Shown: piece after piece, positions 21,401-44,700 of the stretch | Position numbering within the stretch: the stretch's first letter is position 1 | Layout: each line of letters starts with the position of its first letter | Assembly: GCA_040754495.1 (NCBI GenBank) | Contig: JBFMCO010000042.1 | Location: 1 to 47,274, forward strand | Length of the DNA: 47,274 bases | Source: Candidatus Micrarchaeota archaeon | Lineage (GTDB): Archaea > Micrarchaeota > Micrarchaeia > Anstonellales > Bilamarchaeaceae | Direction of reading: 5' to 3' | Position numbers and translations under genes: made by a program | Notes under the pieces: generated by a model | Databases searched by the model: none | Seen by the model: the letters and a program-made list of their open reading frames with translations, nothing else | What the model was told of the DNA's origin: nothing

Positions 21401-21909
21401 TCAAAATGATAACGCGCGAGATAAAGCGCGGCACCTATACGCCCGGGGACATCGCGGCGTTTTTCGAGGGGATAAGGGAGGGGGCCGCAGAGGTCGGGAG
21501 GATGGATGCCGACGCTCTGACCGCGGTTGCCGGAAGATACGCAGGCACCGTGCTGAGCAGGGACGCGCAGGGCACGGCCACTTTCACCGTGGACCAGGCC
21601 CTGATAGACGCGATGGGGGCAAGGATAAGGGGCATCCAGGGCGACCCGGTCGCAGCGCGCGTCCAGATGCTGGAGTACATCTTCGTCCCGCTCAGGGAGG
21701 CGCTCGGCCGCGGGAACGCAGAGGCGATTGCGGAGATAGTAGGGGTGCTGCGGACGGAAATCCATGACGTGCCCACCGACGTGCTCCAAAGATGGAAAAT
21801 CAACTTCCAGGGGCTCCTTCAGAGCGCAAGGACCGAAGAGATAAGGACCGGGCTGAGAGGCGTGCTGGGAGTCGTGGATGAAGAACTAGGAAGAAGGGGA
21901 CCCACCTGA
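3466..21909 (+). CDS. giant protein G1 (6147 aa): helical scaffold, hydrophobic translocation-like region, four kinase-fold domains
   Basis: Uninterrupted 18.4-kb ORF, collinear with G2. Kinase motifs: VAVK/HDFQF/DAG (12535-13059), VFVK/DRFARN/IDMD (14656-15200), LFAK/DRHEGN/IDSD (18292-18864), DSHAGN/IDFE (21253-21327). Hydrophobic segments at 9514-10020. Confidence 0.92.
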   Translation: MAQTQRGGAPGRRVETAEQEVLRELALPLPTVRAPPPDVLRPLQTAISAAEGRVNDLFRLGPEVDRRVGVSPDRERRREGEQERARAEERAAEVPRVKGYLDVIRGQQLGGLEQHAERIYQTVTEADRLIRAGRREEGLRLYETVRPQVGRLYQLLPIARDIATSGLPEEQQRTLIGGANAAMYFYSQGQAARGDIIMQNLETFSRHRDTLMRPEARLARMTIVATVENLSDRRRSITEENLGRAQRDATQMETTLTQAESERRELAAQAFAHQSESLYTFYGTASPEMRQRIDQAREYLDGLATRLRAGETVTDEELRRGAMLTQAMHLGIGVLDGIESTTEKRQVESVYLAAFDVLLTGGNIDTHSSIMLAAQDITGPRGNAALRRSLSTAATAYSTALRSPDATADRKQAAEGALIGVYARHVSGRLGTASSSLTGDMRTRADALAAPLTEHPETATLDQLRFARAGTEVLESRTRHFGRAFNPSAPVRTGADAIYGRALDSLQSGGSVDIAMAQSSLAERYVQTGDETRRTRLEGLSGRLAQNPRELSSVMFYIDADARSQEIRDALPSLPAAARAQGQRLLEGLDAMMATIASGQPLVDDGRVLQAKTEMLARMERDAGFSQQIEQTARVLMMQTPGMTRDQALTEIARAQATEAEMRRGEEMLTTLSTMTDLVRSARGNPARQAEIAEIFSVGVDALLARNTARAATIRQTAALYPRFATDADRRSVLAAVRGLRDGTVQEENFGAYMQVQSQRAEFESSITDPALKRNFRAYMDLAALAALRGDRLERESVLDLAVMYARWASVPANQGGVALMEARSRGMEFVQQRLGDYRRNPDILAGRRLIDAGQARSWTPRAGTITAENAPLTAAILGEGSISEAVGGGDRVAGVSALTALRRDTYTHLAASEDADWERSLARLEGRTPAEQSAVERRWTREAARLRREAASARARGQEALAVHYERQAELVDPQFMHEAFTVARSAYAEYRTEERAAIAFSDEADRARDADITNVTTLATRTREMIGEMPEAQRAEYEARLRQAGTDQAALRTLYLDVMRVRSEQLINGLPEGLQATARQRLRDAGSDEAGMRNVYVSLLRTHAGMHAARGEELRTAAMRIRDDMASLDRGVRLTTVHRTSGRFQLAVSIRTSMAVAGGYDCDFLGRPIEREETTPGGETRRVRVPLTRPRAAQLTAQASAASRVGRGAVDFQVAIERRRDRANAVERAQLTQDIGRFKTLLTTMIDSLPEGNRQQYRDLMTQAGDDPAMLQEIFRRLGNEGVRTQDDQGHEYADIEDRAGDARRAIGLRYAERFGAADALSSSSRSDFRGGVLQARNWLSDQAVARLYNSSTGTQIIGVGTLDLSYTSAETGQPVTVQVTNITPSSELIDNMIQKLPPSSEREALRQRLLAMPAGPAGNDQRQALFSSLLDREVYDPRRAPGTGVTFRAVIERGDSFYYHASEYDQQIAEARALGRSGRGSEAQAALDRIEGDMGRSEIASRSDARELGARHTAWETRRREEGLRGRYTEGLPNQEEHPRSYGEAQDRNDAVTGDHVRLRDGSRTSLLGLYEGSMERGAADMDRLADRHGGVRDTILAGGQMLQPTVEVAVALAAALADSPRDHTLANGRTYAQMLNDLTLPGSPQEQAQRAAALYQAIMDNPQDFAAAARIIREGHDDRGYTYVSGLSSDLVTQLDVTADEMATYGRQRERERTWAFADTHLRRGQSEHRLGDSSHRYRRATSERHREDEARLGWAPHYQTAETHWENAAREYEMAATMLLEGNDTRFTDIVVRNEPVTAPMFEFRGRAAREWHYDGPAYVTVYSENRGTFGTLGRLQPRVLNIPEEMYSLTRREAREMASYTDDDIRGEARQKYDQMGISRVRLELATYGIGTRWHEEEGGGYWGLYRTNMTPEAQRLANEAFQHGEALWDQVSGRIFAHSSDWGDDYVMGFLNRTADRFASDLSAMAAAEGENLAGAREDLRLSVPFEVRSGRLYDPDTITRSNLSDMQYWQGVQETVEIGGRIIVGGLSIALAPVTGGASLVGVVLLGAEQVGQGFEMRAQEGRWTGRAVFTVVMGGVSMVLPFTVYLAEASQVAQAVNLVARGATEAEIALAGATMTSRLVQAGGLLYMGVGMGDYLINQLPGEIDAVQRGDRLWWQAAAGGLFQTIQLAQVGISTYRGAQVQRQGGIPVYRSWGRQVFEALTMGEAFYTREQMSAARAYRTMTTELGALPAPARASYEAYRTALGERGIQLPPADQARLLTGYREAVGRDSTMTFERYVQTPEYRAGVHEQAYNAFGEGRVGAHQLNDEEFTYMWERSHGSRDSAQAEANVATVRGNERMQAGEAALRDVFQGNRTRASLDPHERAYVESRLQGRPPTEALAAADAAAPPTRAGDMRARGEEAARTREFTQAKDLYEGEMIPIIPGGAEETTYSHPSEPGVQYPRDQMQAARDIAATAEFMIRNGNRLPPGIAADSPVAARARELAGTPESPTAFRQFAERPAEQGGPNRGAQMRLALEQSDRMPQFAENAVDHGIASTMEGAASARDLNQAESGSATVRALSLGEGYGEFTRGTLTEQRARELGIGPDEMALFQRMRGENASPRQAGAEFARRAAAETSERALGDAVHTEFNQRAGTLAEPARGAAAVRAERLTEAYHDYNEINLSNLGAPERAARINEVRTRLGLSDAEHGFLTARLGLERAEVGQDIARAALGEIPLERPAAAPRGEEGRTGPRPEEAPPVSRTAAMEAEVGNIRGSEALEAGLRGASAEVVRIARVLEAMAPGDTVLSQQRLGELAAEHPEYASHIEAYNNARPEERPFLARRYAEEIAFGRSSRAFESVAGQRVTGRQASVEIVEDARLFHRALNGRDMTPAEMSRITTEHFDRFERLRRAGMGEADAILQVGREMRTERLMSERGMNRDQATRFVNDEAARPHDVPLRPEEGLGEQDFRAMPSEYNTRTITLPDGSTTTLADAQRARLIRRIDNTEDSVGSTAGVWVAEIMVNGQPRTVAVKVFKDPYVPGGQQRTAQHWENLFEFVTGHPARAGEHAEMGEAGNLSAISGMTFRSGDGRELPVGPGFYGFVNVDGNIAVAMDLLPGMYIGDMSPTQIREFVRPDTYAQIQRIGETLQANGYGMHDFQFIVMFPPESAIPTGLTGAARRQFIENWRTTINGREVRAGDVVLMDAGGLYRAADEPMSTFSPIREAERARSTADQVLVNDALARTTATAADANAPGRAQAQADLQVMEGFMREVEPMVNARDPMAEVTRRYMIKSDRADAAAARLEQIRASDPARAEAIEGAFRRFEREAGLPEGSMLPMRAEEAATVPRRAAVGAEETTVIEPTRPSRAPTPPPGEGTVPGRGRRGPPPTEERTTAPTRRQPPPEERTGTPTRREQPPGEGTRPERRGAPGERPAEGPPAAEVTAAPRSLLDDIRGGAGLRDAIDNLFGVDSNLARRLERRLEVLEQDPMFAERFRVATPEERAIIVESLASGMSPAEAFRRMAAEGAPRTAAEFTAYADRLAGMSEPERLLRIQDIANSDPRLGEALLRMNRETNPARRARLATEWEGAVHERARVQEAQEARAARTADDLRTQELDMVTRAAQARGLDTSIMTELYSNGGTEGRMAVLEGLGVDMSRFNAERTRIEAMPPGDARNTAQQRLDTMVHGFFELMTRGGLEGHIAAMPGYEGATVTGVEFRGGMRGVYEVTLSNGRRVFVKSEDVAPARLGRDLAVAEGMWTSRIHEGYSYDTGLTYRDGTPVRQEFGILEDIHDVRGTQITIRLPDGSTEQVRVVGVSMLRDEVLNVPQPPPPDASPEVVRAYEQRLAAFLADPVVQEFYRLSGSEGGRDSIFQAWRAYQEMSRRAVLGDRFARNTAAVIVERADGSRVLTFQPIDMDAVGWRVGSRPDGTPGFTGLRTDFAEANVDFLTKFSSATAAASGHGLIGGRVDGGTLLGNMYSPTAERGAAIPPDSPATRQRVGEILDGHDGRYFGAGFDTTSPDMPAVGEFISHGGSDRPIGRSDGRVVLHADDMRGVTDAAATPAERQAFDQAVRDELTRRFGGGGRPPGGGGGEPPPGPRTTPERRGGRPPGEGQPPGERTTPGRRGAAQQEQRAEERTMTVRDSDIVEERTATGARRGRAAEERTIPVTTDMIVEERTVPRAPPVEERTTPQRGGAEQPQEATVPRPAEAQPAVAPAPVTRMSPVDLVQPDNLGAFAGRLNAGDATAAADLAAMPPQVREQVGIFQERYAAAAGNAQEQTRIATEYAGRILASSLASSPETLWRFASNFRFGLESSQVTPQARAMLDSLPPAVRDLVIEFGGRLYREWSHRDALAPGYADRMTRAVDAAAVADMYALHTQGRPPANPADRAAMEFITAGGTRTIDPSTPAGAREIDAAVQFRRSASRLVERDGAAALESARTLGESVRTGARPADFQGALAYDAVQDLARASAQQAGRAVPGAQDYFNAAATFRLFEQGGLPDTATVRTPHFSGGNEALEQHGTAYIDWGGLQVEVHIFRDRVNVFSVEPAAIGEMGWPTSGMREALARYAQRRLRGPLERAFRGTMRQIPRETGGGYDVWRPVMDSIQATTLDLTQGRLATAPPAVARYTPEEIVRVHRTADVAARGEAAAAFLEMSPQDQQRTLGLLRERARPLEERAAALEAEARRLEAQVMPEYNSILERKAAAEAEATNYQEQVRALDPQIRAAEQRGDMAEVSRLRAERGRLDGLADERSTAARMLEGEAGRLMRRANDLREQAGELRAMAGYWNEQGMYFRELAGLGGEIGTYLSQRYGVPREELARAYSAQPTTAEARRALYDALGIRLGELPDAAVRSDAYRSFTSLADDPYIAGMILTGDLLRNVEGIVRPDIDPTSLQPGDRVVVRGIDFQNGLVGAYRLTIEVVDSQGRPRTFRDVSGRERTSMTLFAKRQGLSPDATGSEGGRLTGAPSPDILTRGADGRALVYVSPEGQRIEYGLMRDIRDFHGQIDAGRALTDSQGRPARVDVSVDAAEDLYSIVFSSGNPRTTEARDQLFGEFRDHPEQFLEALGYAQTGFTAAGFYDRHEGNVWAMWLRIRNQPAAEAAHIAHQLESQGYRVRDNGDGTWSFLRFGAIDSDTFGQYRAFSMPDGQISLAPMRDQLVTDLHRVFVHLTYEMNQAEIARAHAEGRPPRLRTVEEVTTMAFGENMDGPWMRGMRRWVSEFAPDTPAGARFRADMHSLFDGYNGQRSGMGFAMEGAQLGRFEAQGYEEIPSALNGMPTTHLDGIDGRTSFMANGRMATNPSISEAASPRVRAALPDGQDRYLVRIDDMGRSERRQFLSSLEASGVSTARLRTSAVGGREYIVFSDSAAIPQAMYGRTVAVRRDGDRVFVNNYGALLTAIPEGRAAYVVPLAGMGRVEARRLSSAPGARVLELSIGGEQRFVVFDSPQAVPERHRDSAMQVRRSGSTILGDARMRESMGIINTRDIGAAPMFDGMMNMGDAGWTGLWQGVRDGVLRAEAGARAAPDAGFLQRRVPNPGDTQALPPEYGGPGRTIPVSESDLIPQGSPPRPPPQPPAGGGGTRRGVAPPAEEGQPQPARRQPPPPPQPSEGRGTVRMAPLPPADQMAMPGPAQVPREGGTPGERADAAQMAGRLIAGDPNARTQFTGSSQGMQDAVGFELAQQLNLTRPGDIANFARDVALYELHRTGERPITDPAVLARVERNASLHALLPERVRTAVSGLAGNSAFILSARGTDRAFERYVGNRRLGGALVGGAQREIAGAVNAHFAAGQGAGPRIQIPQQELARISADLDAAVRTGQPTGSVVAITAFAEQGVYRVIIERADGTRTPFIYRERPFRQEAFGSELYAAAGQQAPHFIRLGEGPDARALQEVVGEMDFRTALAQGNLTEAERQSLFREAGRLGMIDYALGLPDSHAGNYVVVRGEGGTLSLMRIDFENAGIGWGRGIRPDGSVGNRDHVIFFKMITREIKRGTYTPGDIAAFFEGIREGAAEVGRMDADALTAVAGRYAGTVLSRDAQGTATFTVDQALIDAMGARIRGIQGDPVAARVQMLEYIFVPLREALGRGNAEAIAEIVGVLRTEIHDVPTDVLQRWKINFQGLLQSARTEEIRTGLRGVLGVVDEELGRRGPT
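12233..13465 (+). repeat. ~1.2-kb intergene duplication (kinase-1 module), second copy at 38374-39595
   Basis: Protein about 80% identical by eye, including a 53-aa identical run. Identical DNA tracts 12976-13031 = 39117-39172 (56 bp) and 13048-13121 = 39189-39262 (74 bp). Confidence 0.95.
13465..13790 (+). repeat. Pro/Arg/Thr-rich low-complexity linker with PPGEG and EERT repeats (within G1)
   Basis: Translation shows PPPGEGT, TEERTT, PEERTG and QPPGEGT. Confidence 0.75.
15690..16110 (+). repeat. Gly/Pro-rich linker with five EERT-x repeats (within G1)
   Basis: Translation shows AEERTM, VEERTA, AEERTI, VEERTV, VEERTT, plus GERTT and PPGEG. Confidence 0.8.
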
Positions 21910-23205: not shown

Positions 23206-23228
23206 ATCCTTGTTTATGGCAGGAAGCG

Positions 23229-23238
23229 TATATAAATA
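23229..23238 (-). promoter_or_regulatory. TATA-like box for the TIM-barrel gene
   Basis: tatttatata on the minus strand with an A-rich upstream stretch, ~25 nt before ATG 23205. Confidence 0.5.
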
Positions 23239-23272
23239 GTGTGGTTTTTTGTTAAAAAAATTGTAAGTATGT

Positions 23273-23878: not shown

Positions 23879-23887
23879 AAGACGTCC

Positions 23888-26750: not shown

Positions 26751-29700
26751 TTGGGTCCACCAGCCCAGAAGGAAACCCCCCAAGCCGGGGCTGCCGAAGC
26801 CCTCAGGACTGATGCTGCCGCCCTGCAGCCGAGGCTGCCCTCGCCTTTCCAGGCCGGCCAGCCGTCCCAGGTCGACCTCAACCGGGGCGCGGAGCAGATA
26901 CGGAAAACCAGCGGCTTCCTGAAAAACACCTCGCTCGGACTAAGCAGGGCCCTGCCGCCCGCCACGACAGGAGACATCAAGGAATTGGAGAACAGGGGCA
27001 ACGCGGCATTCGGGGGGCATCCTGAGGCGCGGACATTCCTCCAGAAGTTAGCGGGTTACAGGGAGCAGGCGGACGCCGCGAGCCGCGAGGGAAGGTACGA
27101 CGCCGAATCCATGGGGAAAGCGCAGCGTCTTGGCTCGGCTCTGAACGCCATTCTGGACGCGAACAACAGGACCGGCAGCGCAGCCCAGCAGGCAGCCGAG
27201 AGAGGCGACGAGACCTCCAGGCACGCCGCCACGGAGATGAAGATACGCCTTCCCCGCCTCTTCAGGATTTTGTCCGGGGAGACGCCGGAGAGCATCGAGA
27301 GGGCGCACGCAGCAGCCGACGTGACGATACATGCCGTGGAGAACCGCGATATCTACCGCCACGAGGGCAACAAGGGCCTTCTCTCAAGGGTCCTTCAGGT
27401 CCAGGAGCGGCTCACCAACGACCAGGTGCAGATGTCCCATGACGACATCCAGAGGGATATGAACGAGGTCTCCGGAAATTTCTATACTGCCGCGGTGAGG
27501 GCTCTTGGTCCGGCAGGCGGGGCGGCAGCGGCCATGATGGCCCAGGTCCAGTCCATGATGGCGTTCCAGACGGTCCGCGACATGATGAGGGGCGAGGCGG
27601 ACAAGCTGGAGAAGCAGCTGAAGGAGCTCCTCAAGGTCCTCGGCGACCCTGAGAAGACTGACGAGGAGAAGAAGAAGGCGCTCGCGGAGGCGGAGGAGGC
27701 GGTCCAGAAATTCGTCCTCAAGGCCCTTGACGCGCTGCTCAAGGAAATCGGAGCGCCGCCGGAGCTTGCCTCGGCGATAGGGAAGGCGGCGAAGTTCATA
27801 GGCACCGCGAGGGCTGGAATGCTCCTGCAGGCCGGCATGATGTACGTCCGGTACAAGGAGGCGTTCGACGAGAAGAAAGAGCTCCTTGACAAGCTGGTGC
27901 AGAACGTGAAGCAGCTGGCCGACGAGAAATTCAAGCCCGCTGCAGAGAAGATGAAGGAGATCGTAGGGGCCCTGCAGGACATCCACAGGGAGGCCGCCCA
28001 GCTCCACCAGAAGATAATGCAGGCGCGCATGCGGATGGCTGCCGCGCTCGGCCAGGCGCTCGGCGAGCTGAGGAAGATGGCTGAGAAGGAGGCCAGCAGG
28101 CCCCTCCGCGAGGCGATGGAAAAGCTCGGCGAATCCCTGCGTGACATGCTCCGCAGGCTGCAGAATCCGAAGACCGCGAAGGAGGTAGACGGGAATAAAT
28201 TCAAAAACGCGCTTGAGACCTTCGGATGGCTCAAGGCGATGACGAACCAGCTCGGCAAGATGCCATCCGACAAGCCCGAGCAGAAGAAGGACAAGGAGAA
28301 CGCCGCCCAGCTAGTCGCAAACGCAGTGAAATCGTCCATCAGGGACGCGCGGTCGGAGATGTCGCGGATGCTACAGTTCGTGGCAGGGGACTACCTGAAG
28401 ACTGCGGACACCGCTTACAAGGCCGCCCTTTTCTCGCTCGGGAACGCGCTCAACGAGGGAAAGAAGACGCTCGATGAGGCGAAGAAGGAAGTCGCTGGCA
28501 GGCTGCTGCAGGAAGGCAACGCCCTGCTTTCAGGGCTTGCAAAGCTCGGCGACGCCAGGCTAATCGAGCTTGTGAAAGGGCTTCTCCCCGGCAAGGAGAA
28601 GCCCGAGCAGGAAACCATGGAGAGCATATTCAAGGCCCGGCAGGCCATCGACATGGGCTCGTTCGCCCTCAAGGAGGTCGCAGGGCAGAAGGCGGAGCAC
28701 GTGAAGACGACCGCGCTCGGCTTCGTCAAGGGCGCGCTCGGCCTCCTTGGCAAGGGGAACTTCGCCGACGCCTCTGCGCTTTATGCGACCGCCCAGCAGT
28801 ACATAAGCTCGCCCGAGACACGGAATGAGATTGACAAGAAGCTGACCGGGCTCCGCAAAGCCGTCCAGGAATTCGAGAAAAGCCCAGCGGCTATGCGGAA
28901 CACGATAGACATAGGAGGCGCGCTGAAAGAGTCGCTCCGCAAGCTGCACCTCGATGCGAAGTCGCTCGGCGAACGGCTCTCCTCAGGCGAGCTCGTCTCT
29001 CCCGAGGAAGTGGCCGCAGTCGAGAAGAGGTTCAAGTTCGCGGAGCAGGCAATAGCAAGCCTCAGGGCGGGCGCGGAGGGCGCGGTGAGGAAGGCGGCAG
29101 GCGAGATTTTCGCGCGCGGCCTGGACGCGCTAGCGTCCGGCAATCCGGCCGTTGCTGCCCTCCATAGGTTCCTCGGCGCTGAATGCATGAAGGGCAACGC
29201 CGCCTACAGGAAGCAGCTCGAACAATGGAGCGCGGGCGTGGCAAGCGGCGAGATGAAGATGGAGGACGCCGTGAAGCAGGCCGCATCGCGCCTTGCAGGC
29301 GAGCTGGGAAAGATTCCCGCATGGAAGAGCCTTACCGAATCCGGCATCACGGATTCCATCAAGGCGCTGATTCAGAGGGGCAGCGCGCCCGATGCCACGC
29401 TCGCGGACTGCGAGAACATGCGCAGCGCCCTCGACCTTGCCGGGGAGTATCGCGCGGGCATAAGGAAGGCGACGGACAAGGCCGGGCTTGCGAAAGTGTT
29501 CGCCAGGGCATTCGCCGGCCTGGCGAGGGGCTTGTCCCCGGAATACGTCGATGCCCAGGCAAAGCTCGCACGCTCTTATATGGACCCGCCGGCCTCGGCG
29601 TTCGTGAAGGCGGAGGCGAGGCGCGCCCAGATTGAAGCCGTTTCCGCCAGGATGGAGGACGTCGGCCTTCTGAATGCCGTGCATGGCTTATTCACCAGGG

Positions 29701-32700
29701 AGCCCCCTCTTGACGAGGCTACGGTAAAGAAAGGTCTGGAGGCGCTGTTCGGTACCGGCCCTGAAGGCGCGGCGATGGCTGCCAGGTACCTCCAGAGGTA
29801 CAAGGAGCTGGGGCCCGATGCGGAAGCCAAAGGCAAGGCTATGGCCGAACTCGCCAAGGTCCCGAACACTTACGTCAAGCTGCTCGGAGCCGCGCAGGAG
29901 ATGGCGAAGAAGCGCAAGGAGACCGAAAGGCAGCTGGACACGCTCAGCTTCCAGTATACGCGGGGCATCACCCGCATGGACAAGGCCCTTGCCGCACTTG
30001 CAAAGGGCGAGAAGCCTGCCGATGCCGATTTGAAGGCAGCCGAAGCGGCACGCGCCGTGCTTCTTGGCTCGGCCGACGATATAGCCGCGCTGTTCGCGGC
30101 ATCGGAAGAGGACTTGCCGAGGCTGAGGACCCAGTTTGCCGGGGTGCTGAACGTCGGCGACGCAGTGAAGGGCAGGAGGGACACGAGAGAACAAATCCTC
30201 GGCATCGCGGCTTCCGCGCTGGAGGCCATAAAGGATGGCGACTATGACAAGGTCGCAGCCTTCGTGATGGGCTACAGCGCATACAGCAAGGCCCAGAGCG
30301 AGGACGACAGAGGGAGGATACTCGGGGTAACTGAAGGCCTTTCCGCTGAAGCCAAGAAAAAATACACCCCGGACCAGGCGCGGTGGATGCTGAGGCTCCA
30401 GTTCGACCGCGCAACAGCGCTGGACAAGACCCGGGACGCTGGCGCCAAAAAGAACCTGCAGGCATATTTCGACATGTCCCTGGTCCTGTTCGAGCGGAGG
30501 GACCTTGCCGGGGCCGAGATGGCAAGGATGCTTGCCGCTGATTATGCGACCGCTTCCCGGATGGAGAAGAGCGACCCGACAGCAAAAGCCGCGATTGAAC
30601 TCGCCCACAGGATTTTGGGGGACCACCGGAAGGACAAAGGACTGGATAGGCGCCGGGTCCAGGACGCGACGAGGCCGGAGGACGACAAGAGGAGATGGGA
30701 GCCGAAGAGCCTGGACGGCATCGCGGGAAAGGCGCTCGTATCAAATACTACATTAGAGGAGCAGCTGAAGGCCGCTGAGGCTGGCGAGAAGGACAAGGGG
30801 ACCGTGCTCGGCGAGGTCCTTTCGCTGCCAGCAGGCCAGAGGATGCAGGCCCTCGGCATCAGGATGGGCGGGCTTTCGGCCGATTTGGGGAAGCTGGAAT
30901 TTGAAAGGGGCAACAGGGAGGTCGTCCCTTCAGGCGCGGCCGCAAGGAGGAAGATTGAGGCGGTCTACAAGACAGAAAACGCATGGCATTCAGCCAGGGC
31001 GGCGGCGGCCGAGAAAAGCGGGGATGCCACAGAGGCCGAGCGGCAGAGGGAGGAGGCCGGCGCGGTGGACCCGAAGTGGATGGAATCGCAGCTCCAGAGG
31101 GCGGCGGCCATTTACGGCAAGGGCCTTGCACTGCTCAAGGAGGCCGGGGGGCTCAGGATGCGCGCGCTCACCGAAGAGCCCGGGCAGGCGAAGAAAACCA
31201 ATGCCGAGGCTGCCGAGTTATCGAAGCGCGGGCTCCAGATAATCCAGTTCGCCGAGGCCGCGCAGAAATCGCTCAAGACGCATGACGAGAGCGTCAGGAA
31301 AATCAGGCACGACAACAGGGACGAGGGGAGGTGGAGGCTGCGCGATGCGGCCGAATCGTTCCTGAAAGTCGGGGAGGAGATGGCCGAGGCAAAGAGCGAG
31401 AAGCCGGACGGCAGGCAGACCGCCCTCCTCGGGAGCGGCGCACGGGCCATGGGAAAGGGGATGCAGGAGGTCGAGACGCAGAAGCGCCTGTGGGAAACGC
31501 ACCTGACGAACCAGTCAAAGATACAGCAGGAGAGGAAGAAAGCGAAGGCGAACGACAATGCGTATGGAAACGAGAGGGTTGTCAAGGACCAGCAAAGCGG
31601 CGTGGAGAGGAAGGAGCCCCTGAAGATGAGCAGGGACGTCACATACAAAGGCAAGACTTACAAGAAAGGGACAGCAGTCGTCGATACCGAACAGAGGCTG
31701 AAAGACCTGAACTACGCTGAGGGAGCTTCTAGAAAGCTTAGGTTCAGGGGAGCGGCGCATTTCCTTTCCAAGGCGCAGTCGGGCATCCTGCTCGACCAGC
31801 GCAGGGCGGCTACCGAATTGAACTACCAGGAGCTCCTGCCTGGAGCCACCGCGGAGGAGCAGAAAAGCGGGGACTTCAAGCCGGTCGAGTGGCCGGTGAC
31901 AGATGCGAGCGGAAATCCCACGGGCAAGACGAAAACAGTGGGCTTCAACTACAACGACCTGATGGGCACGCTCCTGGAAGCCAACGACACACTCTCGGCA
32001 GGCAGGGTGGGCGAGGCGAACAGGGCGATGGCCGGCTATGAGGGCAGGCTGAACTTCGCGTACCAGACGCAGAAGAAGCTGAACGACATCCACCGCGACG
32101 AGCGCGCGATGGCCGAGCTTACCAGGCTAGCGGAAGACGCGCGGAAATGGGGGGACATGTCCCCTGAGGACAGGGCGGACCTGAAGAAAAGGCTCGACGC
32201 GCTCGCTGCCAAGGGCATAATCACATCGCTTGGCGAGAAGCCCTACCGCGAGGTCATCGAGGAGGAAATCAAGAAGCGCAACGACGCGCTCAAGGCGCAG
32301 GGCAAGCCGCCGAATTTCACCGCTGCCGATTACAGGAAGGAGACCGACAAGGCCCTGGCGTATTTGGAAAAGAAGAGGCAGGCAGGGACTCTAACAAAAG
32401 ATGAAGCGGCGAGTTTGGATGGAATCAAAAAGCTGAGGAACGTCGCCGAGGAGATGGAGAAGGACCCGGTCGGCCTGGCGCAGAGGCAGCAGGTCGCGGA
32501 CGCAATCCGCAGGACCGGCGGGCCGGAGGCGCTCGCGAAGGCCGGCGAGGCGCTGAGAGGGGATGTCAGCAAAGACAAGGACAAGGCAACGGCGCAGCTC
32601 CAGGACCTCGTGAACAACGGCCCGGTCTCCAAGGTGCTCGGCCCGCAGGACGTGACGCAGTTCCTTAACGCGGTATTCATGGCGCGGGGATGGGACCCCA

Positions 32701-35700
32701 AGTACTACAGCAATCTTGTCCAGCAGGGAAAGGCCGGCCAGGCATGGCAGGAGTTCATGCAGAAACATCCTGAGGCCGCCATAAAGGCCATCGAGTACAT
32801 GCGCGACAACGGCCAGCTTGGCGCGGACAAGAACGAGGCGGCGCGCATCGCTGCTTTCACCATAACAGACATCCAGGGCGGGCAGATAGCAAAAAGGACC
32901 GAAGGATACGCAAGAGGGCACGCCATCGCGATGGGCACGCTGACGCTGAGCCTCGAGACGGCGAGCGCGGTGGACACGCAGGAGCGCATGAGCGGGGTCG
33001 GCGGCGGGAACGGAAGCTGGTATATCGGGCTGAGGGGCGACGCCGCGAGCATTCTCCAGTTCGGCCTTGCCGCCTGCGGCAGTCCGGAGACCATCGCGGA
33101 CAGCATCGCGAAAGGCGAGGAGATACGGCTTTCTGGGCTCCAGATAAAGCTACGCGAGGGGGGCGGCATCACGGAGCCGAGCGAGGCATGGCTCAGGGCC
33201 GGCGAGAACCAGGTCAATGCATCGGGCTTCCTGCAGGAGAGGCTCGGTAACTTCCTCAACCAGATACAGAAATTCTCGGTCGGCTCGCCAATGAGCACGA
33301 GCGACATCTATGCGCGCATGGAAAAGATGGACCCCAAGGACCCGCCCCGCTTCACGCATGATTCGGCGGACAACCTGGCCTCCATGATAACGAGGGGCAT
33401 CTTCGCATCCGGAGGGCTCGCCTACGACAAGCAGACCGGCGATTACGTAAAGACAGCTTTCTCCATGGATGAACAGGAGGCTAACCGCAAGCTGCTCTAC
33501 GGGGATACTGCAACGCAGAAAGGCGGGTACTTCGAGCTGATGCAGAGGTTCTTCAACGTAGGATTCTCCTTCCAGAGCACGTGGTCCTACGGCTACCGGA
33601 AGGACCTCTTCAACAACATAGGGACACAGGCCGCGAAGGTGAACGAGAAGCTCGACACAATCGCGCAGAACAGGATATACGGTGCAGGAACCTCCAAGGC
33701 CGAGCTTGACACGCTCGTTTCGGACGTGATGAAGTCGAGAGACAGCAACATCAGCGCGTACGACGAGAACGTCAAGAGCGCGAAGACCTGGGAGAGTGTA
33801 GGCCGCGCCGTCAGCGGCATAGGCAAGCTCGCCCTGGCCGGCGTCCTCATAGCATCGGGATACGGCTCCGCGGTCGGCGTTGGCTTCGGCGTTGAGGCCC
33901 TGCATGATCTGGCCGAGAACTCGCGCAAGGCCGGAGGCTACCAGTACCTTTCGCCGGAGCATGCAGCCATGGGCTGGGCTGCGGTGGCGCTCTCTTTCGG
34001 GGGCGCGGTGCTGGGCGAGGCGACGGCAATCGCCAACGAGACCATCCAGATTACCAGGGCAGGCACCCAGCAGGTCATTACGGGCACGCAGATGGCTGTA
34101 AGGGGCGGACAGATGACTGTCACCGAAGCCAACGCCATCGTGAACGCTGCGATGTCCGGCACCAGGGTGAGCTGGCTGACCAGCACGTTCGCGACAGGCG
34201 GGCGTACCTCGACCGTGCTCGGCTACGGCATGATGGGCGCGGGCATCGGCATGGCCGGCTACGGCATGCGCGAGGCATGGCACGCCTACCAGATGGGCGA
34301 ATCCTCGCTCTTCGAGTTCATCGTATCCGGGCCGGTCGGCCTTGCGCAGGCCGGCGTCCCGGTCCTCGGCGCGAAGATGCTGCCCACAAGCAGGCTGATA
34401 CCGAACCTGTGGGTAAGCGAGAGCTTCGGGGCGAAGTTCTTCCGCGGCTCCATGCTGTTCCTTACCGGAGAGACGAAATCCGCGGTCGATGCTGCGCATT
34501 TCTCCGGAATCCGAGACCAGTCATTCCACGAGTTCCGCGCGCTGCCGCCTGAGCACAGGAATGCCATTCTCGCAATGGAGCGGGGCATGAGCCGGATGAT
34601 GAGCCCGGAGGAGCAGCTGACCGCGATGAGAATGCTCCCCCTGGAGAGGAAGGCGAATGGCGAGCTCGTGCTCGGGAAGGCAGGGGAGGGCATCCAGACC
34701 GGGCCTTTCGACGCGGCGGCGCAGTCAGGATTCATCGGCCAGGCTCTTGCGCGCCTGGAGGCGGCGCCGAGAATCGAGGCGCTCAACCAGGCATATGCTG
34801 AATTCAAGGCGACGGGCAAGATTGATGCGGAAAGAGCCAGGCAGCTCGGCCTCGGCGCGGGCGACCTCGCCCTATTTGCCAAGGACGGCCCGCTTGCAGG
34901 GGCGAAGAACGCGGAAGAAGCCGCGGCCATGATGTCCAATCTCGCAATCAGCCAGACGCGCATGAGGCAGATGGACAAGGCTGCTGCAGATGCCCCCCAG
35001 GGCGCGAACGCGCAGTCGCAGGAGCGGGCGAAGCAGCTCGCGCTGGGCTTCCGCAGGTTCCTGCGGAACCAGCTCGACGAGGCCACGGCCAAGAGCCTGG
35101 GCATAGAAAAGCCCCAGGTGGACCTTTTCCAGCGGCTCTCGAAGATGGCTCCCGAGGACATTTCTTCCGGCATTGCCAGGCAGGCCGAAGGGGAAACCGT
35201 CCAGAAGACGCGCATGGACACCATGAGGGAGAAGGCCGATGCCGCGCGCGCGGTCGGCGTGCACCGGGAGATGGCCGGGAGCTTCTCGGTCGAGCATGTG
35301 CCGGGAGTTGGATTCTACAAAAAATTCGGCGGAAGGAACTATAGCGACGAGCATGCAGGAGCAGCGGCGGACGTCGGGGCGGCGGCGCAGGCGCTATACA
35401 CGCGCTCGAAGAAGCAGCCCATAACGAGGGATGCGGCAGCCGCGGAACTGGCGCGGCTCGGCGAGGCTGGCGCGAAGGTGCCGGACGCGAAAATAGACGC
35501 GACCCTCAAGCTGCTGGCCGACGCGAGGTTCCTCAAGGCCGTGGACGGGGGGGACAAGGCCGGCGCGCTCCAGAGGGCGCTTGACATATCGTATGACATG
35601 CCAGGCCTGAGCGTTTCCAAGGATGCGGCGGCGGCAAGGGTCGCACCCGAGGCCCAGTCATACATACAGAATGCCAATTACCCGCTCTCGGGCATCACGA

Positions 35701-38700
35701 GAAAGGGTGGCGAGCAGGCGAAAAGAGGGCAGGGCCTCAGGGCGCAGGCCAAAGAAAACCAGGCAAGGGCGGACGCCCTCCCGTCCGGCCATGCCGATAA
35801 GAGCAGGCTCGAGGCGCTTGCCAGGAAACAGGGTCTCGAGGCAGATGCGCATGAAGCCAACGCATCCGCGCTCACCCTGGAGCTGACGCGGAGGGCCACC
35901 GCACTGGAGAAAGACGCGGGGAACGAAGCCAGGACGGAGGCGAAAGCGCGGAGGCTGGACGAGCAGGCCGTGGTAGCGAGGACGGACCAGGTTATGGAGG
36001 CCATGAAGCTGCATCTTGCCGGCAAGCTCACGGAGAAGGAGGCGACGAGGCTCGGCTTCCCTTCGCTTGAGGAGGCGAGGTCAGTCCTGACCGAGATAGA
36101 CAGCAATCCCGCTACTGCGGCCAAGAAGATGGCGAAGTTCGCGGCAGAGGATGTCCAAGCGCTCGCGCAGCAGCAGCGCATGAAGCTCGCCGCCGGGGCC
36201 GAGCGCCAGGCCGCGGATGCTGCTTTCGCTCCGGCGCCGTCGAAGGCCGCGCCTGCGCCGAGGCCAGGGGAGAGGGCGGCAGAGGGCGTCCCTGCGGCAA
36301 AGGCAAGGCTTCCTGCCAGGGCGCGCACGGTCCCGGCCGAGACGCAGCAGGTCATAGGCAACATAATCGCGAGGTTCGGCGAAGCCGGGTTCGCGCTGAG
36401 CCGCGAGCAGAAGGGGGATTTGGCCCGCAACGTCCTCCGGCTGCGCAGCGGCCAGCTCACGCTCGGCGAGTTCTGGAGGAGGATAAACGAGATGATGCCT
36501 CCGTCTGCGCTCCCCGAGAGCCTGCGCATGCAGAGGCCGTTCCCTTCGTTCCCTGAGATGGGCCTGACCATACAGAGCCCGGAGGCCCTCAATTTCTTCG
36601 TGAAGATAACTGCGGAGGCGCTTCCTGCCGCCTTCAAGCCGGACGTGGCCGGCGGCCTGCCTGCGGACGCTTCCATACAGATGGGGTTCGTCTCTCTGGA
36701 TTTGCGGAGACAGAACCTGCTGAACGCCATAGCGAGCAACCCGCAGCTCAGGGTCGTCGGCGACATCAACATATACGAGTATTTCACGAAGGTCGTGCGC
36801 GACGTCGCGCCGGCTGTCAACCCGAAGCTCAGGGCGCAGGGGATTGACGCGACCGTGACCTCGGCGGCATTCGGCACAAGCTCGGACGAAGCAGGGTTCC
36901 TCATAGTCGCGAGGACGGCCGGGGACAGGGAGCGCGCGCGTGCCATACTGGGAGATACGCTCTCCAATAATTTCAAGTTCGAAGGCAGCATCCTCGACCA
37001 GATGACGAAGGGGTCCGCGATGCGGCCCTATATCGAGGAGGTGTTCCAGACCAAGGGGAGGGTCGGGAGCGGGGCGGCGTTCGTGGAACTCGGCGCGAAA
37101 GACATGGCCGCGATAGCCAAGGACCCTGCCGGCTTCATAGACAGGATGAGGCGCATATCGGACGCCCGCATCGGCGAGGGCGACTGGGTGAGGACGCAGA
37201 AGGGGGCGCCGACCGACGCCGACCTGCCGGCCACGGCGATGCACTTCATGTCCGGCAAGGCACTCGGCAGCGACTACATGGCGCGGAACGAGAAGCTGAA
37301 GGCCGAGTTCACGGGTAAGCTCGAGGGCATAAACAGGGAGATATTCGGTCCCGGCAACGAGAAGGTGAAGGCCGGGGACTCGGTGGTGGTCGTGACAGGC
37401 GAGCTTGCCGTGGACCGCACCAGCGCGGCATATGCCAACCTGCGCACGCTCGCATCCAAGAAAGGCAAGATGTACGGCACGGTCGAGGAGGGCAGGGTGG
37501 GACTCAGCGTCTCGAACATGCCGTCCCAGGCATCGGGCGACGAGTTCCTTTTCATCCACCGGGCGGCTGCGGGATACGCACGCGACAAGTTCGCAAAGGC
37601 GCACGGCATCGACCCTGCGAACATTGACGTAGTGCAGACCGGCAACGGGCCGGACTTCTATTTCAGGGTGAAGGGAAAGAAGCTGAGTTCGCAGGAAGCC
37701 TCCGAGCTGCTCGGGTATTACCGGGAAGGGGGCAAGCAGCACACGGCCGAGGGGTTTGACGTCTCGGCCAGGGGGACGCTGCTTACGGGCGACAACATAA
37801 CCATGGATAATTTCAGGAACGGCATAAGGTACATCAAGGACGGAATCTCGCACGGCGATTTGCGCGCCCCGCGCGAGGGCGGCCTCGTGGAATTCAACAG
37901 CATACCGAAGGACTACACGACCAGGGACATGCGGCTCAACCGCGCGGGCCAGATAATGGGGATGTTCTTCTCCTCCGAGAGGCTCATGGCGGCCGATTCG
38001 CCCATGGCCGCCAAGCTGGCCGAGGTGGCCGGGAAGGAGTTCGTGGAGACGTTCAGGAAATTCCTTGAAGAGGGCCACATAACCGCGAGGACGTGGGAGG
38101 ACGTCCGCTCCATACTGGAGAACGGAATCGAGGTCGTGAGGGACGGCAAGCGCACGACGCTCGACTTCCCGCAGGGAAAGGAAATCGCGAGGAGGCTCTC
38201 CGGTGACGACTTCCTCGGCTGGGTAGGCGGCAGGTACAAGGACGTGGATGTCAATGACGCCCTTGCAGTCATCAAGACCAGGCGCGAGGCCGAAGGGAAG
38301 GCGCCTCCTGTTCCCAAGCCATCAGAGAAGGCCGCACCGGGCCCGCAGGCAAGGGAGCGCGAGGCGGGAATCCAGCGCCTTATGAGCGAGCGCGGAATGA
38401 ACCGCGACCAGGCGACGAAATTCGTCAATGACGAGGCCGCGAGGCCGAACGCGGTTCCGCTGCGGCCCGAGGAGCATCTCGGCGAGGAGGGCTTCGGGGG
38501 CATGCCGGTCGATTATCAGAAAAGGACAATCACGCTGCCGGATGGCTCGACCACGACGCTTGCGGAAGCGCCGCGCGCAAGGCTTCTCCGCAGGATTGAC
38601 AACACCGAGGACTCGGTCGGGTCCACCGCGGGCGTGTGGGAAGCCGAGATAATGGTGAACGGCCAGCCAAGAAGGGTGGCCGTAAAGGTGTTCAAGGACC

Positions 38701-41700
38701 CTTATGTAAGGGAAGGCCAGCAGAGGACGGCCCAGCACTGGAACAACCTGTTCGAATTCGTCACGGGCCGGCCTGCAAGGGGCGACCAGCCCGCGACCAT
38801 GGGCGAGGCAGGGAACCTCTCAACAATAGCGGGGATGACATTCAGATCATCTGACGGGAGGGAGCTGCCGGTAGGGCCCGGCTTCTACAAATTCGTGAAT
38901 GTGGACGGCAACATTGCTATTGCGATGGACCTCCTGCCCGGCATGTACATCAGCGACATGAGCCCGACCCAGATAAGGGAGTTCGTCAAGCCGGATACGT
39001 ATACTCAGATTCAGAAGATAGGAGAAACCCTCCAGGCTAAAGGTTACGGAATGCATGACTTCCAGTTCATCGTCATGTTCCCGCCCGAGTCCGCGATACC
39101 GGCCGGCCTCACGGGAGCCGCGCGCAGGCAGTTCATAGAGAACTGGCGCACGACAATAAACGGCAGGGAGGTGCGGGCTGGAGACGTGGTGCTCATGGAT
39201 GCCGGCGGGCTTTACCGCGCGGCAGACGAGCCTATGTCCACGTTCAGCCCCATAAGGGAGGCCGCAAGAGCCCGCAGCAGCGCCGACCATGTTCTCATAA
39301 ACGACGCACTCTCAAGGACCACAGCAGACGCGAGCGCGCCGCAAGCGGCAAGGGCGCAGGCTGACCTCCGCGTGATGGAATCGTTCATGCGGGAAGTCGA
39401 GACGATGGTCAGTCCGGATGCAAATATGGCCGAGGTCACGCGCCGCTACATGATAAAGAACAACCGCGCTGATGCCGCCGCGGCGAGACTGGAGAGGATA
39501 CGGGCGAGCGACCCGGCGCGGGCGAATGCAATCGAAGGGGCGTTCAGGCGCTTCGAAAAGGCGGCAGGGTTGCAGGAAGGAGCTATGCTGCCTGTGAAGA
39601 TGGGCGAGGCGGCAAAGCCGGCGGAGGCGAAGGTGCCGCCCGCCGCGAAACCGCAAGAATCACGGGAGGAGATAAGCGTATCCATATCGCTCTCAGAGAC
39701 GACCCCGGTAGCGAAGGTAGCCCCGGAAGCCGTTGTAGTAGATGAAAAAGCTGCAAGTCAAAATTACAAGAACGCGATAGACGAGCTGGCGCGGATGACG
39801 CCGGACGAGAGGAAAGCCAAGCTCGAAGAGATAAGGAGGACTGATTCCGAGCTGGCGACCTCCTACCAGTTCACGCTCCTCATGCCCGAGGGGATACGGG
39901 CGAGGATTGCGCAGGACTACAGCAGGGCCATGGCGGAAAGGGCGCGGATTGGAAGGGCGAGGGCGGCCAGGGCCGCAATGACGCCGGAACAGGTATCAAA
40001 GCAGGAGCGCGCGCTCATCCTCGGCTCAGAAGCCGAACGCGCGGCAGGGAGAATACCTCCGGCCGTGGAAGCGATGGCGAAGGCGCGCGGCCAGAAGCCG
40101 GCGGATTTCCAGCAGGATTTGGCGAATGACCACGGCATTGGCGGCATAACGGCCACGCTCGACCGCATGGTCCCGCTGGACAGGATAAAGGTGCCGAAGG
40201 ACACTGCCCGCCCCGAGGTTGCAGAGGGCCATTACCGGCAGATTGCGGACCTGCTCCTTCGCGGGAATCTCGAGGGCCACATCGGCGCGCTAGAAGGATT
40301 CGGGGGGGCGAGGATAACCGGCATCACGCATGCCAGCGGCCTGAGCGGCCTCTATATAATAGAGGCGCAGACGCCGGGCGGGGCGAAAAGGAGGGTCCTC
40401 GTGAAAGTGGAGGACCAGTCCCCCTCGGTCCTCGGAGTGAACATTGCCAGGGCCAACGGGCTCGTGACCTCTGATATCCGCGCCGGCTTTTCATATGACA
40501 CCGGAGTCATCGACCCTGCCACGAAAAGGCCGGTCATGCAGGAATTCGGCATCCTCTCGGACATACACGATTTCGCGCTCGGCAACGAGACCTCGATAAC
40601 GCTTGCCGACGGGAGGAGCGTGAAGGCGAACGAGGGGCAGATGGTCAGGGCGAGGATGCCGGACGGCAAGGCGGAAGACGTCCGCGTGATGGGCGTCGCA
40701 ATGATGTTCGACGAGGTGCTCGTGAATCCCGGCGCCGCTGTATCGGACCCGAAGAAAGCGGCAGCTGTCCAGGAGTTCTACAGGCTGCTCTCTACTTCAG
40801 AAGGAAGGCAAAGGTTGTTCGCGGCATGGAACGCGTACCATGAGATGTCGAGGAGGTCGCTGCTCATGGACCGCTTCTCGAGGAACACTGCGGTCATGCT
40901 CGTTGACCGCGGAGCGCAGCACCCGGCGAGCGAGAGATACCAGATACTTTTCCAGCCTATAGACATGGACGGCGTGGGCCACCGGGTAGGTGCGAAGCTG
41001 GATGGCACGCCACGGTTCGACAACTTCAACGGAGACTTCGCGAAGGCCACGGCCGACCTCATGACCAAGCTCGTGCGGTTCTCTGCCGCCAACATGATGG
41101 CGGAGGTGGAGGGGGCGCCCGGCGTGAAAAGGCCGCTTTATGAAGGCGGGCCCCTCACGATGGAGACGTTATACGCAGATTACCTCAGTGACAGGGCTTC
41201 CGGCGGAAGCCGCATGGCTCCTGAAACCCCTGCTGCCAGGAAGGCGGTCGCTGATAATATATTAGCGCCTCATGACGGAAAGCCGTTCGGCCTCGGTTTC
41301 GACACCTCGAAACCTGACAAGCCAAAGCTCGGGAGCATCATGGAGTCCGGGGGGAGGCCTAGGATAATAGAAAGGGGGGACGGCCGGGCGAGGATGGACG
41401 CAGGCGAGATGGTAACCATTTATGAGGCGGCGGCCAAGGGCCAGGCTGAGTTCGCGGGGCGCGACGCTGCCCGCATCGCAGACATCGCTTCCATCGAGGC
41501 AGCGAAGAAGAAGCCCGGCTTAAAGAGGGAGGAACTACGCGCGCTCGATGCGCGCCTCGCCCAGCACGGGGCGAACGAGCTGGAGCTTAAGCTCGCCGGG
41601 CGCCTCGCAGCGAACCCTGAGTTCGGCGGGGCGGATTTGCAGAAGCGCGTGCGCATAGCGCAGGACGAGCTTGCAAAGCTGAAGGCTCCGGCCAAACCGC

Positions 41701-44700
41701 CGCCTCTTCCGGCCGCCGCGAAGAAGGCAGCCGAGACACGGGCCCTTTCACCAGCGGAATACAAGAAGGCAGCTGACGAGGCAAAACTGGCCCCCAACCT
41801 GCGTGGATTCCTTGACGAGCATTATGCCGGCGGTGCCAAGGATGCTGGTGTAGTGGAGAATTCCATCAGGATATTCGGTAACAGGGACGGGGAGAGGTCC
41901 GGGATAATCGGTGATTTCTACGGGCTCATGGGTGCCGAATCCATGGGAGGGAACGCCGGGAAGGACCGCATCGCGATTGGCACGGCCTTCGACCCCGTAT
42001 CTGGAAAAATTACTGCGTTCTCGAACGACCCCAAGGACTGGGGAGGGACTGACCGCATTTACCTGCATATTAACATGGTGACTGGAAGGATAGAAAGCGT
42101 CATGCGCCAGTCCGGCATGAACGTAGTTGAACTCACCGGCCCGCCGCAGATAACAGGGCTAAAGGGGCTCAGGGTATTTGAGCCAAGGGGAGGGGATGTT
42201 GCCAAGCGGCTTGCCGAGGCCAGGGCGCAGGCCAAAGCGGAACAGGAGGCTAAAGTGCCGCCAGCGCCTGCTCTCGGCTCCGCAGACCAGCTCGCAAAGT
42301 TTGCAGGAAGGCTCGGAGCGCAGGACACCGAGGCCCGGGCGCAGCTTGAGCGGCTCCCGGCAGCGGTGAAGGAGCTTGTGCAGAAGTTCAGGCAGGAGCA
42401 CGAGGCCGCAAAAGGGAATGCGGCCAGGCAGACGGAGCTTGCCGAACGGTACTCAGCGGACATCCTGCACGAGGGCGAGAAATCCAGGATTGGAAAGCTC
42501 TACGAGCTTTCATTGAAAGGGGAGGCACCAAAAGACCAGCTTGATGCAAGGACACTCGAGGCCCTGAAGGACGGCGTCGCGGCAGGCCGGCCCGTGGCCA
42601 TCGCTCTCGATAACGCGCTTGAGATGAGGGCGCAGGCAAAGGCCTACGCCGAGATGTCAGGAGCCTCCAAGCCGCTGCCCGGGGGATGGGCAGACGCTTC
42701 TATGGTGAAGCTCGTACGGAATGCGATGGCTGCGAGGAAGAAGGATGCGCCCGAGGTAGTCGCGCTCGACGTGCTGCGCTCGGTGAACGCGCTTGCGGAC
42801 GCTGCCGGGAGCGGGAAAGAGATTGATTCGAAAGCTGCACGGGCGCTCGGCTACAGGAGCGTTGCGGAGGCCAACGCAGCGGTCGAACTTGCGCGCTCGT
42901 GGGCGAAGATGGGGGGTACGCCCGGCAGGGAGGAGCTCGCGACCGCGGCGCTCGCGGTCCGGAGCATGGAGGCGCAGACGCCGCTGATAAAATTTGCTGA
43001 CACGACCGGGTACTCGAGGGCCGAGGTTCCCGGCGACCCGCCTCCATTCGTGGGCGTCAAGATGAGATGGGGCGAAGTGGATTTCACGGTGATGGTGTTC
43101 AAGGACCGGGTTGTCGTGGAATCGGTGTATCCCGAAAGCATAATAGGGCAGAAGGCATGGCCGAACGACAAGGCACAGGTGGCGGCCATGAGGTATCTGC
43201 AGGAGAGGTTCAGGGGTGCCCTCACGAAAGGCCTCGAGCCGGCCATGCGCGCAATCCCGCAGGCAGGCGCCGGCATTGACGCATGGCGGCCGGCCTTCAA
43301 GGCTGTCGAGAAGGCGGCAGTGGATCTGACGAAGGCGCCGCCCCCGCTCCCCGCGAAGGCGATGACGCCACTGGATGTAGTGGGCGTTTTCAGGACTATG
43401 GATTATACTTCAGCGCCGGCGGCTGCGGAGGCCTTCCGCTCGATGAACGCTGGCGACCGGCAGAAAGTTGTAAGCGGCCTGCGTGAGCTGGCCAGGCCGG
43501 GTGAGAGGAGGATTGTGGAGCTTATTGCGGAAGCGGGAAAACTGGAGGTCCGCGCAGGGGAGCTCGAGCAGGCCGGGAAGAGCGCAGAGGCCGGGGCGGC
43601 GCGCTCGCAGGCGAAGACAATGCGCGAAAGCGCGGAATTCACCCGGAAGAACATTGCAAAGTGGCACGAGCGGGCAGGGTACTTCAGCGAACTCGATGCC
43701 ATAGCTGGCGCCGCAGGGGACCACATCGCGTCCAGATACGGCGTAAAGCGCGAGCGGCTCGAGGCCGCATATGCAGGCGCGCTGACTTCTGCCGAGGGCA
43801 GGAAGGCGGTCTTCGACCTGCTCGGAATCAAGCTCGATGCCCTGCCGGATGCCGAGATAAGGCATGACTTATACAAGGGATTCGACACGCTTGCGGACGA
43901 CCCCTATCTTAACGGTATGGTGTTCACCGGGAACCTGTTCAGGGAGCTGGAAGCGGCCATTCCGGGAGGCAAGGTGAAATCCATAAAATTCCAGAACGGC
44001 CTCGTGGGCGCCTACCAGCTCACGGTCGAGGCCCCTAACGGGCAGCGCTCCCGCATCTTCGCCAAGCGCCAGGACCTGAACCCTGACCGCACCGGCAGCC
44101 ATGGCTCGGCGCTCCTCGGCCTCATCTCGCCGCATGTAATCGTGAAGAGCGGCGATAAGGCAGACGGCGCGCCGCTGTCGTTCATCTCTCCGGACGGAGT
44201 GAGTACCGGCTATGGCATCATGCGCGACATCCGCGATTTCAGCGGGAAGGTGCTGATTGGCGGCAGGGAAGTGGGCCTGAGAGTATTGTCGGCTGAAAGC
44301 TATTTCGACATCCCCCTCCCGGCAAAGAGCGCAGAGGGGAAGGCCGCGCGCGATATCCACATGCGCGACCTGATGCAGGACCCAACCGGCATGATGGAGG
44401 AGCTCGGGCACTTCCACACCGGGGCCGCAATCGGCGGATACTACGACAGGCATGAGCTGAACGCCTGGAGGGCCGTCGCGAAGATTGAGGAGGCGCCGGC
44501 GAAGGCGAGAGAGACGGCGGAGTTCCTGAGGAGCCGCGGCTTCAAGGTGTCGCAGGAGCAGGATGGCACATATACGGTGAGGGGGCCGGCGCAGATAGAC
44601 ATAGATACGTTCGGCTCGTATCGAGCCATCGTGGGCGGCTGGAAGGTCATCGAAGGCACGGTCACTCCGGCGCGGGCCAGCGAGCTCGAGGGGCAGGGAT

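Follow-up and report, generated by a model that had tools for sequence, protein, structure and literature searches.

The question raised by this stretch of 47,274 nucleotides (hereafter the window) is what the giant open reading frame (ORF) G2 carries in a region for which the other giant ORF of the window, G1, has no counterpart. The first-pass annotation had described nucleotides 36675-38213, corresponding to amino acids (aa) 3309-3821 of G2, as tandem GGDEF/Cas10-like palm domains, and the motif strings that it quoted are all present in G2 where it had placed them. Our analysis shows that the region is a self-contained cassette of ~670 residues, consisting of a helical lead-in, two very divergent GGDEF-type palms and a helical tail. 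Judged from sequence and a predicted structure, this cassette would, on balance and with modest confidence, be a single-chain nucleotidyl cyclase or transferase with one active and one degenerate palm, forming one phosphodiester bond at a time.

Fold and signatures of the two palms

The cassette was modeled with AlphaFold2 on alignment A2 (9 sequences, 20-53% identity), yielding a predicted local distance difference test score (pLDDT) of 83.4 and a predicted template modeling score (pTM) of 0.83. The lead-in was modeled from aa 3250 only, and its modeled part up to ~aa 3283 has pLDDT <50. The GGDEF topology is present, namely a five-stranded palm with helix alpha0 and the order beta1-alpha1-alpha2-beta2-hairpin-beta3-alpha3-beta4-alpha4. 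Two independent models and two structure-comparison programs assign the GGDEF fold to both domains over nearly their full length, and for both palms GGDEF domains outscored every other family. The predicted structure thus supports what had been proposed from the letters alone, tandem ferredoxin-like palms of the GGDEF, class III cyclase and Cas10 kind. The features are listed in Table 1.

The signature of palm 1 lies within the segments GFVSLDLRRQNLLN (G2 aa 3312-3325), VVGDINI (aa 3335-3341) and AAFGTSSDEAGFLIV (aa 3372-3386). Invariant palm 1 residues in A2 are D3317, N3325, R3334, G3337, D3338, Y3344, N3357, L3360, A3372, S3377, D3379, E3380 and A3387, and the pattern D...N...G[DE]...Y...[SG][SG]DE is invariant in palm 1 of 14 sequences from three subfamilies (20-50% identity). 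D3317 and N3325 are spaced by 8 residues, as in the DxDxFKxxN of the canonical GGDEF copies of this genome, and the loop before GD is 4 residues longer than in canonical GGDEF. The hairpin reads S-S-D-E-A-G-F, in which D and E are invariant and GG is absent; sister cassettes carry SGDE or GGGDE at this position. Palm 1 therefore appears, by sequence and model, to have all that a GGDEF half-site needs, two glycines excepted. The earlier mapping of palm 1 onto GGDEF, motif by motif, is backed both by the positions in the model and by the matching register of the stepwise profile link described below.

For palm 2, the first-pass annotation had taken SGDEF as the catalytic motif and combined it with the SDE of palm 1 into one composite active site. 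SGDEF was rejected as the catalytic hairpin, as it opens helix alpha2 (DSSP, model residues 344-368, pLDDT 83-98, with SGDEF at 346-350) and is also put on the GD motif position by hhalign; the hairpin is TGNGPDF. G3596 of SGDEF is invariant, and D3597 is Asp in eight of the nine sequences and Glu in the ninth. The acid of the palm 2 hairpin varies, being D, E or Q in 7/9 homologs with none aligned in the other two, and beta1 has no conserved acid either, though the N and GD positions are present. Because a conserved acid is lacking in both the hairpin and beta1, palm 2 is probably not catalytic, and neither the model nor the conservation points to a site shared between SDE and SGDEF.

Palm 2 is nevertheless conserved, with G3572, K3573, N3589 and G3596 invariant in the nine homologs and K3696 present as Lys in eight and Arg in one. 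In the VIA alignment of palm 2 to PleD (265..468 vs 292..455), range arithmetic locates an insertion of 37 residues downstream of beta1 and ahead of the hairpin. Given that insertion, and reading by motif order, spacing and secondary structure, N3589 and G3596-D3597 would correspond to the N...GD positions, and Y3694..K3696 to the YxAK of alpha4. The Gly-Lys pair within the insertion may, to judge from its conservation, form a phosphate-binding loop specific to the family.

As these palm 1 and palm 2 residues are invariant across nine homologs, the motifs go beyond chance, which is a stronger argument than pattern counts. From the composition of G2, 0.04 occurrences of [GSA]GD[DE]F would be expected there; two were observed, both of them in the cassette, and G1 has none. 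Comparison of palm 1 with palm 2 by hhalign was not significant, and an internal duplication is therefore not demonstrable by sequence.

The second of these two matches belongs to RLSGDDF, which had been listed as a further palm motif. A third palm around it was rejected, since the motif forms part of a helix in the C-terminal helical domain and lacks conservation: SGDDF is retained only in the three closest sequences, and among the first seven the Phe alone is conserved. Invariant tail residues in A2 are R3780, D3784 and Y3829, and the R..(E/D)D stretch of the tail aligns by hhalign with RTIRDTED of a stand-alone family of related proteins.

Table 1. Positions of the cassette, its parts and related loci (window positions unless a contig or model numbering is given; model residue n is G2 aa 3249+n)
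Feature	Position	Strand	G2 residues	Remark
G1	3466..21909	+		giant ORF, 6147 aa, in window
G2	26751..46709	+		giant ORF, 6652 aa, in window
Whole cassette	36294..38294	+	3182-3848	single block in blastp of G2 vs homologous giants
Flanking linkers	~36200-36293 and 38298-38360	+		Pro/Ala/Lys-rich, low complexity; visible in translation
Helical lead-in	36294..36578	+	3182-3276
Palm 1	36579..37163	+	3277-3471	GGDEF-fold domain, catalytic signature intact
Palm 1, D3317 (end of beta1) and N3325	36699..36725	+	3317, 3325	SLDLRRQNLLN; position of DxDxFKxxN in GGDEF
Palm 1, G3337-D3338	36759..36764	+	3337-3338	N-terminus of helix alpha2; position of GD in GHxxGD
Palm 1, S3377-S3378-D3379-E3380	36879..36890	+	3377-3380	beta2-beta3 hairpin; counterpart of GG(D/E)E
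Palm 1 elements	model numbering			beta1 59-69 (D68 at end), alpha1 72-77, alpha2 86-101, extra helix 103-113, beta2 118-124, S-S-D-E hairpin, beta3 132-138, alpha3 141-158, beta4 189-199, alpha4 200-222
Inter-palm linker	37164..37274	+	3472-3508	zero Cys
Palm 2	37275..37907	+	3509-3719	GGDEF-fold, conserved, without conserved metal ligands
Palm 2 insertion after beta1	37413-37520	+		~37 residues; invariant Gly-Lys G3572-K3573 at 37464-37469
Palm 2, SGDEF	37533..37547	+	3595-3599	opens helix alpha2
Palm 2, TGNGPDF	37638..37658	+	3630-3636	beta2-beta3 hairpin
Palm 2 elements	model numbering			helices 260-293, beta1 295-305, inserted helix 310-322, G323-K324 loop, short helix 336-339, alpha2 344-368, beta2 376-380, T-G-N-G-P hairpin, beta3 386-391, alpha3 398-413, beta4 420-430, alpha4 436-448
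C-terminal helical domain	37914..38297	+	3722-3849	contains RLSGDDF
RLSGDDF	38193-38213	+	3815-3821	helix 570-579 of model
Tail	model numbering			helical, 473-600
Second cassette-bearing giant, same genome	C57:7011-8759 (L008)			3959-aa frame, cassette 54% identical to G2
Stand-alone homolog of whole cassette, own genome	C19:7163-8875 (L038)	-		570 aa, no Pfam match
Four canonical GGDEF domains, own assembly	C45:28520-29707, C12:890-1408, C59:12322-12876 (L012-L015)			PF00990, 99-134 bits

Stepwise link to the GGDEF family

The relationship to GGDEF was traced through three profile comparisons. The G2 cassette aligned by hhalign with the stand-alone family (expectation value [E] 3.6e-5, probability 71.5%) over 401 co-linear columns that span palm 1, the linker, palm 2 including its Lys-Gly insertion, and the tail. 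The stand-alone profile in turn matched both palms in the cassettes of other giants (HMMER, E 1e-11 to 1e-6), a second set of 771-8609 aa that the G2 query had missed and whose palm 1 has LIRPSxSGDE or IRPPSGGGDE, near RxGGDEF. These second-set cassettes then matched 16 canonical GGDEF domains of the genus with an hhalign probability of 89% (E 2.2e-6), in the register D=D, N=N, GD=GD and GDE=GEE. Because each step was significant and the last one was in the expected register, G2 palm 1 is, by sequence, a true but very remote GGDEF homolog, and we regard the cassette as an offshoot of GGDEF specific to this lineage. What the analysis shows is thus the fold of the two palms, where their residues lie and that these are invariant, and the homology to GGDEF.

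Direct searches do not reach this far. Neither the region and its halves nor any of the nine homologs matched PF00990 up to E 10, the ESM Atlas gave no usable match to the region, and hhalign of the stand-alone family against canonical GGDEF was not significant (probability <1%). In a search for related loci, the sole match with palm 1 alone was an RND efflux pump of a Bacteroidota metagenome-assembled genome and was spurious, as was a weak profile match in G374, a DXP synthase.

That no sequence database recognizes the region, and that the third motif is not conserved, would suit a chance resemblance of motifs in an unrelated fold. We consider this highly improbable, as the two models and two structure programs give a GGDEF fold for both domains and the stepwise profile link leads to the same family.

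Occurrence in giant and stand-alone proteins

In the closer homologs, G2 aa 3182-3848 are kept as a linker-bounded block, with varying partner modules in different giants, and we therefore refer to them as a cassette. An exhaustive phmmer search with G2 aa 3250-3850 against 1.84 billion representative proteins returned only 9 clusters, all of them giants of 1521-6652 aa. Among 401 genomes of the phylum, the G2-type region occurs in six, five in the genus of the window (its own genome included) and one in another genus of the same family. Kinase modules accompany the cassette in four giants (P0005, P0007, P0008 and P0006), and in P0011 the cassette is C-terminal. Word-index searches with the G2-type profile for stand-alone or mid-length forms returned only the already known P0011.

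The first-pass annotation had regarded the palms as cargo specific to G2. As far as G1 is concerned this stands, since neither phmmer nor blastp of the region against G1 found a counterpart. The blocks common to both giants by blastp begin only at G2 aa 3870, with a kinase block directly after the downstream linker that is 82% identical between G1 and G2 over G2 aa 3870-4288. The cassette is not confined to G2, however, as the same genome holds the giant on C57, which otherwise has just one weak block in common with G2, and a stand-alone copy on C19. The stand-alone gene, encoding a protein of ~570 aa, is present in 24 of the 31 genomes of the genus.

Searches with the stand-alone profile were positive in 29/401 genomes of the phylum, 21/28 in the genus and 26/76 in the family. 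A palm 1 profile (A3) run over the phylum had led to this family through a weak match (E 1e-4) in a genome of the genus, to a frame of 577 aa that carries D-KSRQT-LN, AGD and SSDEG. The neighbors of the C19 gene encode a Na+/H+ exchanger, Cbf5, an EMC3/TMCO1-like protein and ribosomal proteins L3, L4 and L22; related genes lie near those for an L18e-type ribosomal protein, a Cbf5-type TruB-PUA protein and an EMC3/TMCO1-like protein, which fits an archaeal origin. Within this genus, the cassette is thus both a stand-alone protein and a swappable module of giant modular proteins.

Two further observations concern the stand-alone genes. Where the Gly-Lys insertion of palm 2 sits, the family has GT[RS]KG[YF]. 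In one genome of the genus, two stand-alone cassette genes lie ~1 kb apart on one strand (G180:C47:19966-21573 and 22689-24209).

Canonical GGDEF proteins had been described as scarce in archaea, which does not apply to this genus. They are common in it, given four copies in the assembly of the window, two of which are encoded by short neighboring frames (226 and 233 aa), and at least one PF00990 domain in 21 of the 31 genomes.

A small paralogous ORF (87-113 aa) lies directly 5' of each giant gene, in the window at 3118-3459 (+) and 26404-26742 (+), and these two are 42% identical to each other. Homologs also lie upstream of giants in two other genomes (L010:2727-3014 and L011:2741-3004; blastp E 1e-23 to 2e-5, one pair E 0.002). 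The product of the small ORF might serve the giants as a dedicated partner or chaperone. A small neighbor gene specific to cassette-bearing giants was sought as well, and only this general upstream ORF of ~100 aa and paralogs of "family X" were found, none of them cassette-linked.

Predicted activity and relation to known systems

In the mechanism that we propose, palm 1 would be the catalytic half. Two divalent metals would be held by D3317 together with D3379/E3380, and the base of the nucleoside triphosphate (NTP) would be contacted by N3325 and D3338. Palm 2 seems to have lost the metal ligands while keeping base- and phosphate-side positions (N3589, G3596-D3597 and K3696) and adding the conserved Lys-Gly loop, and a second nucleotide would be bound there, either as the acceptor or as an allosteric ligand. 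It is from this pairing of a catalytic palm with a nucleotide-holding palm that we propose bond formation in single steps, and the product made from NTPs might be a linear or cyclic di- or oligonucleotide. The logic would be that of Cas10 or soluble adenylyl cyclase, a single-chain pair in which one palm is active and one degenerate. That the cassette is catalytic is inferred, as are the function of palm 2 and the nature of substrate and product.

The main rival is a nucleotide sensor, in which a degenerate GGDEF pair would bind cyclic di-GMP (c-di-GMP) or another nucleotide and thereby switch either the giant's conformation or the kinase modules next to it, comparable to the degenerate GGDEF domains of LapD, FimX and PelD. 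It is plausible because canonical GGDEF genes are abundant in the genus and archaeal GGDEF proteins have recently been demonstrated to be active (PMC13725321). Two features speak against it, and we rate it as rather unlikely: none of the three putative metal ligands in palm 1 varies among the three subfamilies, and the RxxD inhibitory-site motif is absent from the sequence ahead of either hairpin. Receptor GGDEFs typically let their metal ligands decay.

Palm 1 might also be catalytic with another palm-type chemistry, such as NTP hydrolysis or ring opening (as in GTP cyclohydrolase III), formation of a cyclic mononucleotide (cNMP), or template-independent nucleotidyl transfer onto protein or nucleic acid. 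GTP cyclohydrolase III does appear among the structural matches of the whole model (see below). However, GGDEF outscores all other families for both palms, the sole significant profile link is to GGDEF, and the N and GD base positions of GGDEF are retained, which makes a different chemistry unlikely in our view.

To a bolder version of the nucleotidyl cyclase or transferase proposal we give less credence still. Here the cassette would be a lineage-specific cyclic (oligo)nucleotide synthase, derived from GGDEF independently of Cas10 and arriving at the same arrangement of a live and a dead palm. The giant form would be delivered to the host archaeon, or act at contact with it, and make a signaling nucleotide there, for example triggering or jamming cyclic-nucleotide signaling or defense of the host. 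The symbiont would obtain the same molecule for its own use from the stand-alone copy.

Several points weigh against a nucleotidyl cyclase or transferase. The activity is a prediction from sequence and model. In palm 1, S-S replaces the GG of GGDEF, and two additional residues precede the Phe. Pfam, NCBIfam and PADLOC searches with the region and its halves gave only sub-threshold noise (Csa3_N, Ntox8 and Inhibitor_I78), phmmer and hmmsearch against PDB sequences gave no match, and against the four canonical GGDEF domains of the same genome, the two palms and the tail of G2 had hhalign probabilities <1%. A pooled profile of 28 sequences met canonical GGDEF with E 2.2e-3 and a probability of 13%, the register being unchanged. 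The residue equivalences with PleD come from positional reading rather than from a printed superposition.

The GGDEF diguanylate cyclases (PF00990; PleD 1w25/2wb4, WspR 3bre/3i5c, DosC 4zvf and DgcZ 3tvk) are among the closest known systems. In comparison with them, palm 1 has an additional helix between alpha2 and beta2 that bears a conserved VN..L motif, palm 2 has the 37-residue Lys-Gly insertion, and there is no RxxD site. The cassette also joins its two domains, and a helical tail of their own, into a single chain, and it is located inside proteins of 1,500-6,650 residues or forms a stand-alone protein of 570 aa without a sensor domain.

With the whole model as query, Foldseek placed Cas10 on top (6xn7_A, E 1.6e-5, probability 0.99; ~40 Cas10 entries), followed by soluble adenylyl cyclase and GTP cyclohydrolase III. 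Like Cas10 (Csm1/Cmr2), the cassette combines two palms in a single chain, with a helical domain after them. The template modeling (TM) score over the whole model is ~0.2 and the root-mean-square deviation >20 A, and the domain order is therefore common with Cas10 while the global pose is not; the best superposition of the two palms on a Cas10 chain aligned 129 residues. In these comparisons, no solved two-palm enzyme, whether Cas10 or soluble adenylyl cyclase, could be superposed on the two palms together. Cas10 carries its GGDD motif in the second palm and has a degenerate first palm, whereas the invariant acids of the cassette are in its first palm, with none in the second. There is no match to the HD family, the part upstream of the palms being a short helical lead-in after a Pro/Ala linker, and no Cas10-type zinc finger between the palms, as G2 aa 3250-3850 contain zero Cys. 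No Csm/Cmr-like neighbors were seen among the window ORFs that were read; these were not run through Pfam, and no search for repeats or arrays of clustered regularly interspaced short palindromic repeats (CRISPR) was made.

Soluble adenylyl cyclase and the class III pseudo-heterodimers (5d0r, 8co7; mammalian C1/C2) scored below GGDEF. Their head-to-tail pose was not recovered for the cassette palms, whose motifs follow the GGDEF pattern.

The cassette may also be likened to the enzyme modules of polyvalent and polymorphic giant proteins, being linker-bounded with varied partners. Polyvalent proteins of phages and plasmids have GGDEF modules, and bacterial polymorphic toxins carry enzyme modules in giant proteins. 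The cassette differs from these in also existing as a housekeeping-looking stand-alone gene beside ribosomal protein genes.

In the literature searched, we found no description of such a cassette in giants of Micrarchaeota or DPANN archaea. Its fold and likely chemistry are of known kinds, and none of the sources searched has an annotation for the family, the fusion or the context. The plausibility of GGDEF-made nucleotide second messengers in Archaea has been shown only lately. The cassette adds a second branch of GGDEF, invisible to sequence searches, in which a pair of one putatively active and one dead palm is fused and appears to have been recruited repeatedly into giants beside kinase modules, in one family of tiny symbiotic archaea. 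If it is a sensor, c-di-GMP-type signaling would be tied to the control of the giants. If it is active, it would parallel Cas10 by convergence, outside CRISPR, would add an unannotated enzyme family of ~30 genomes to the domain databases, and would provide a biochemical handle on the function of giant DPANN proteins.

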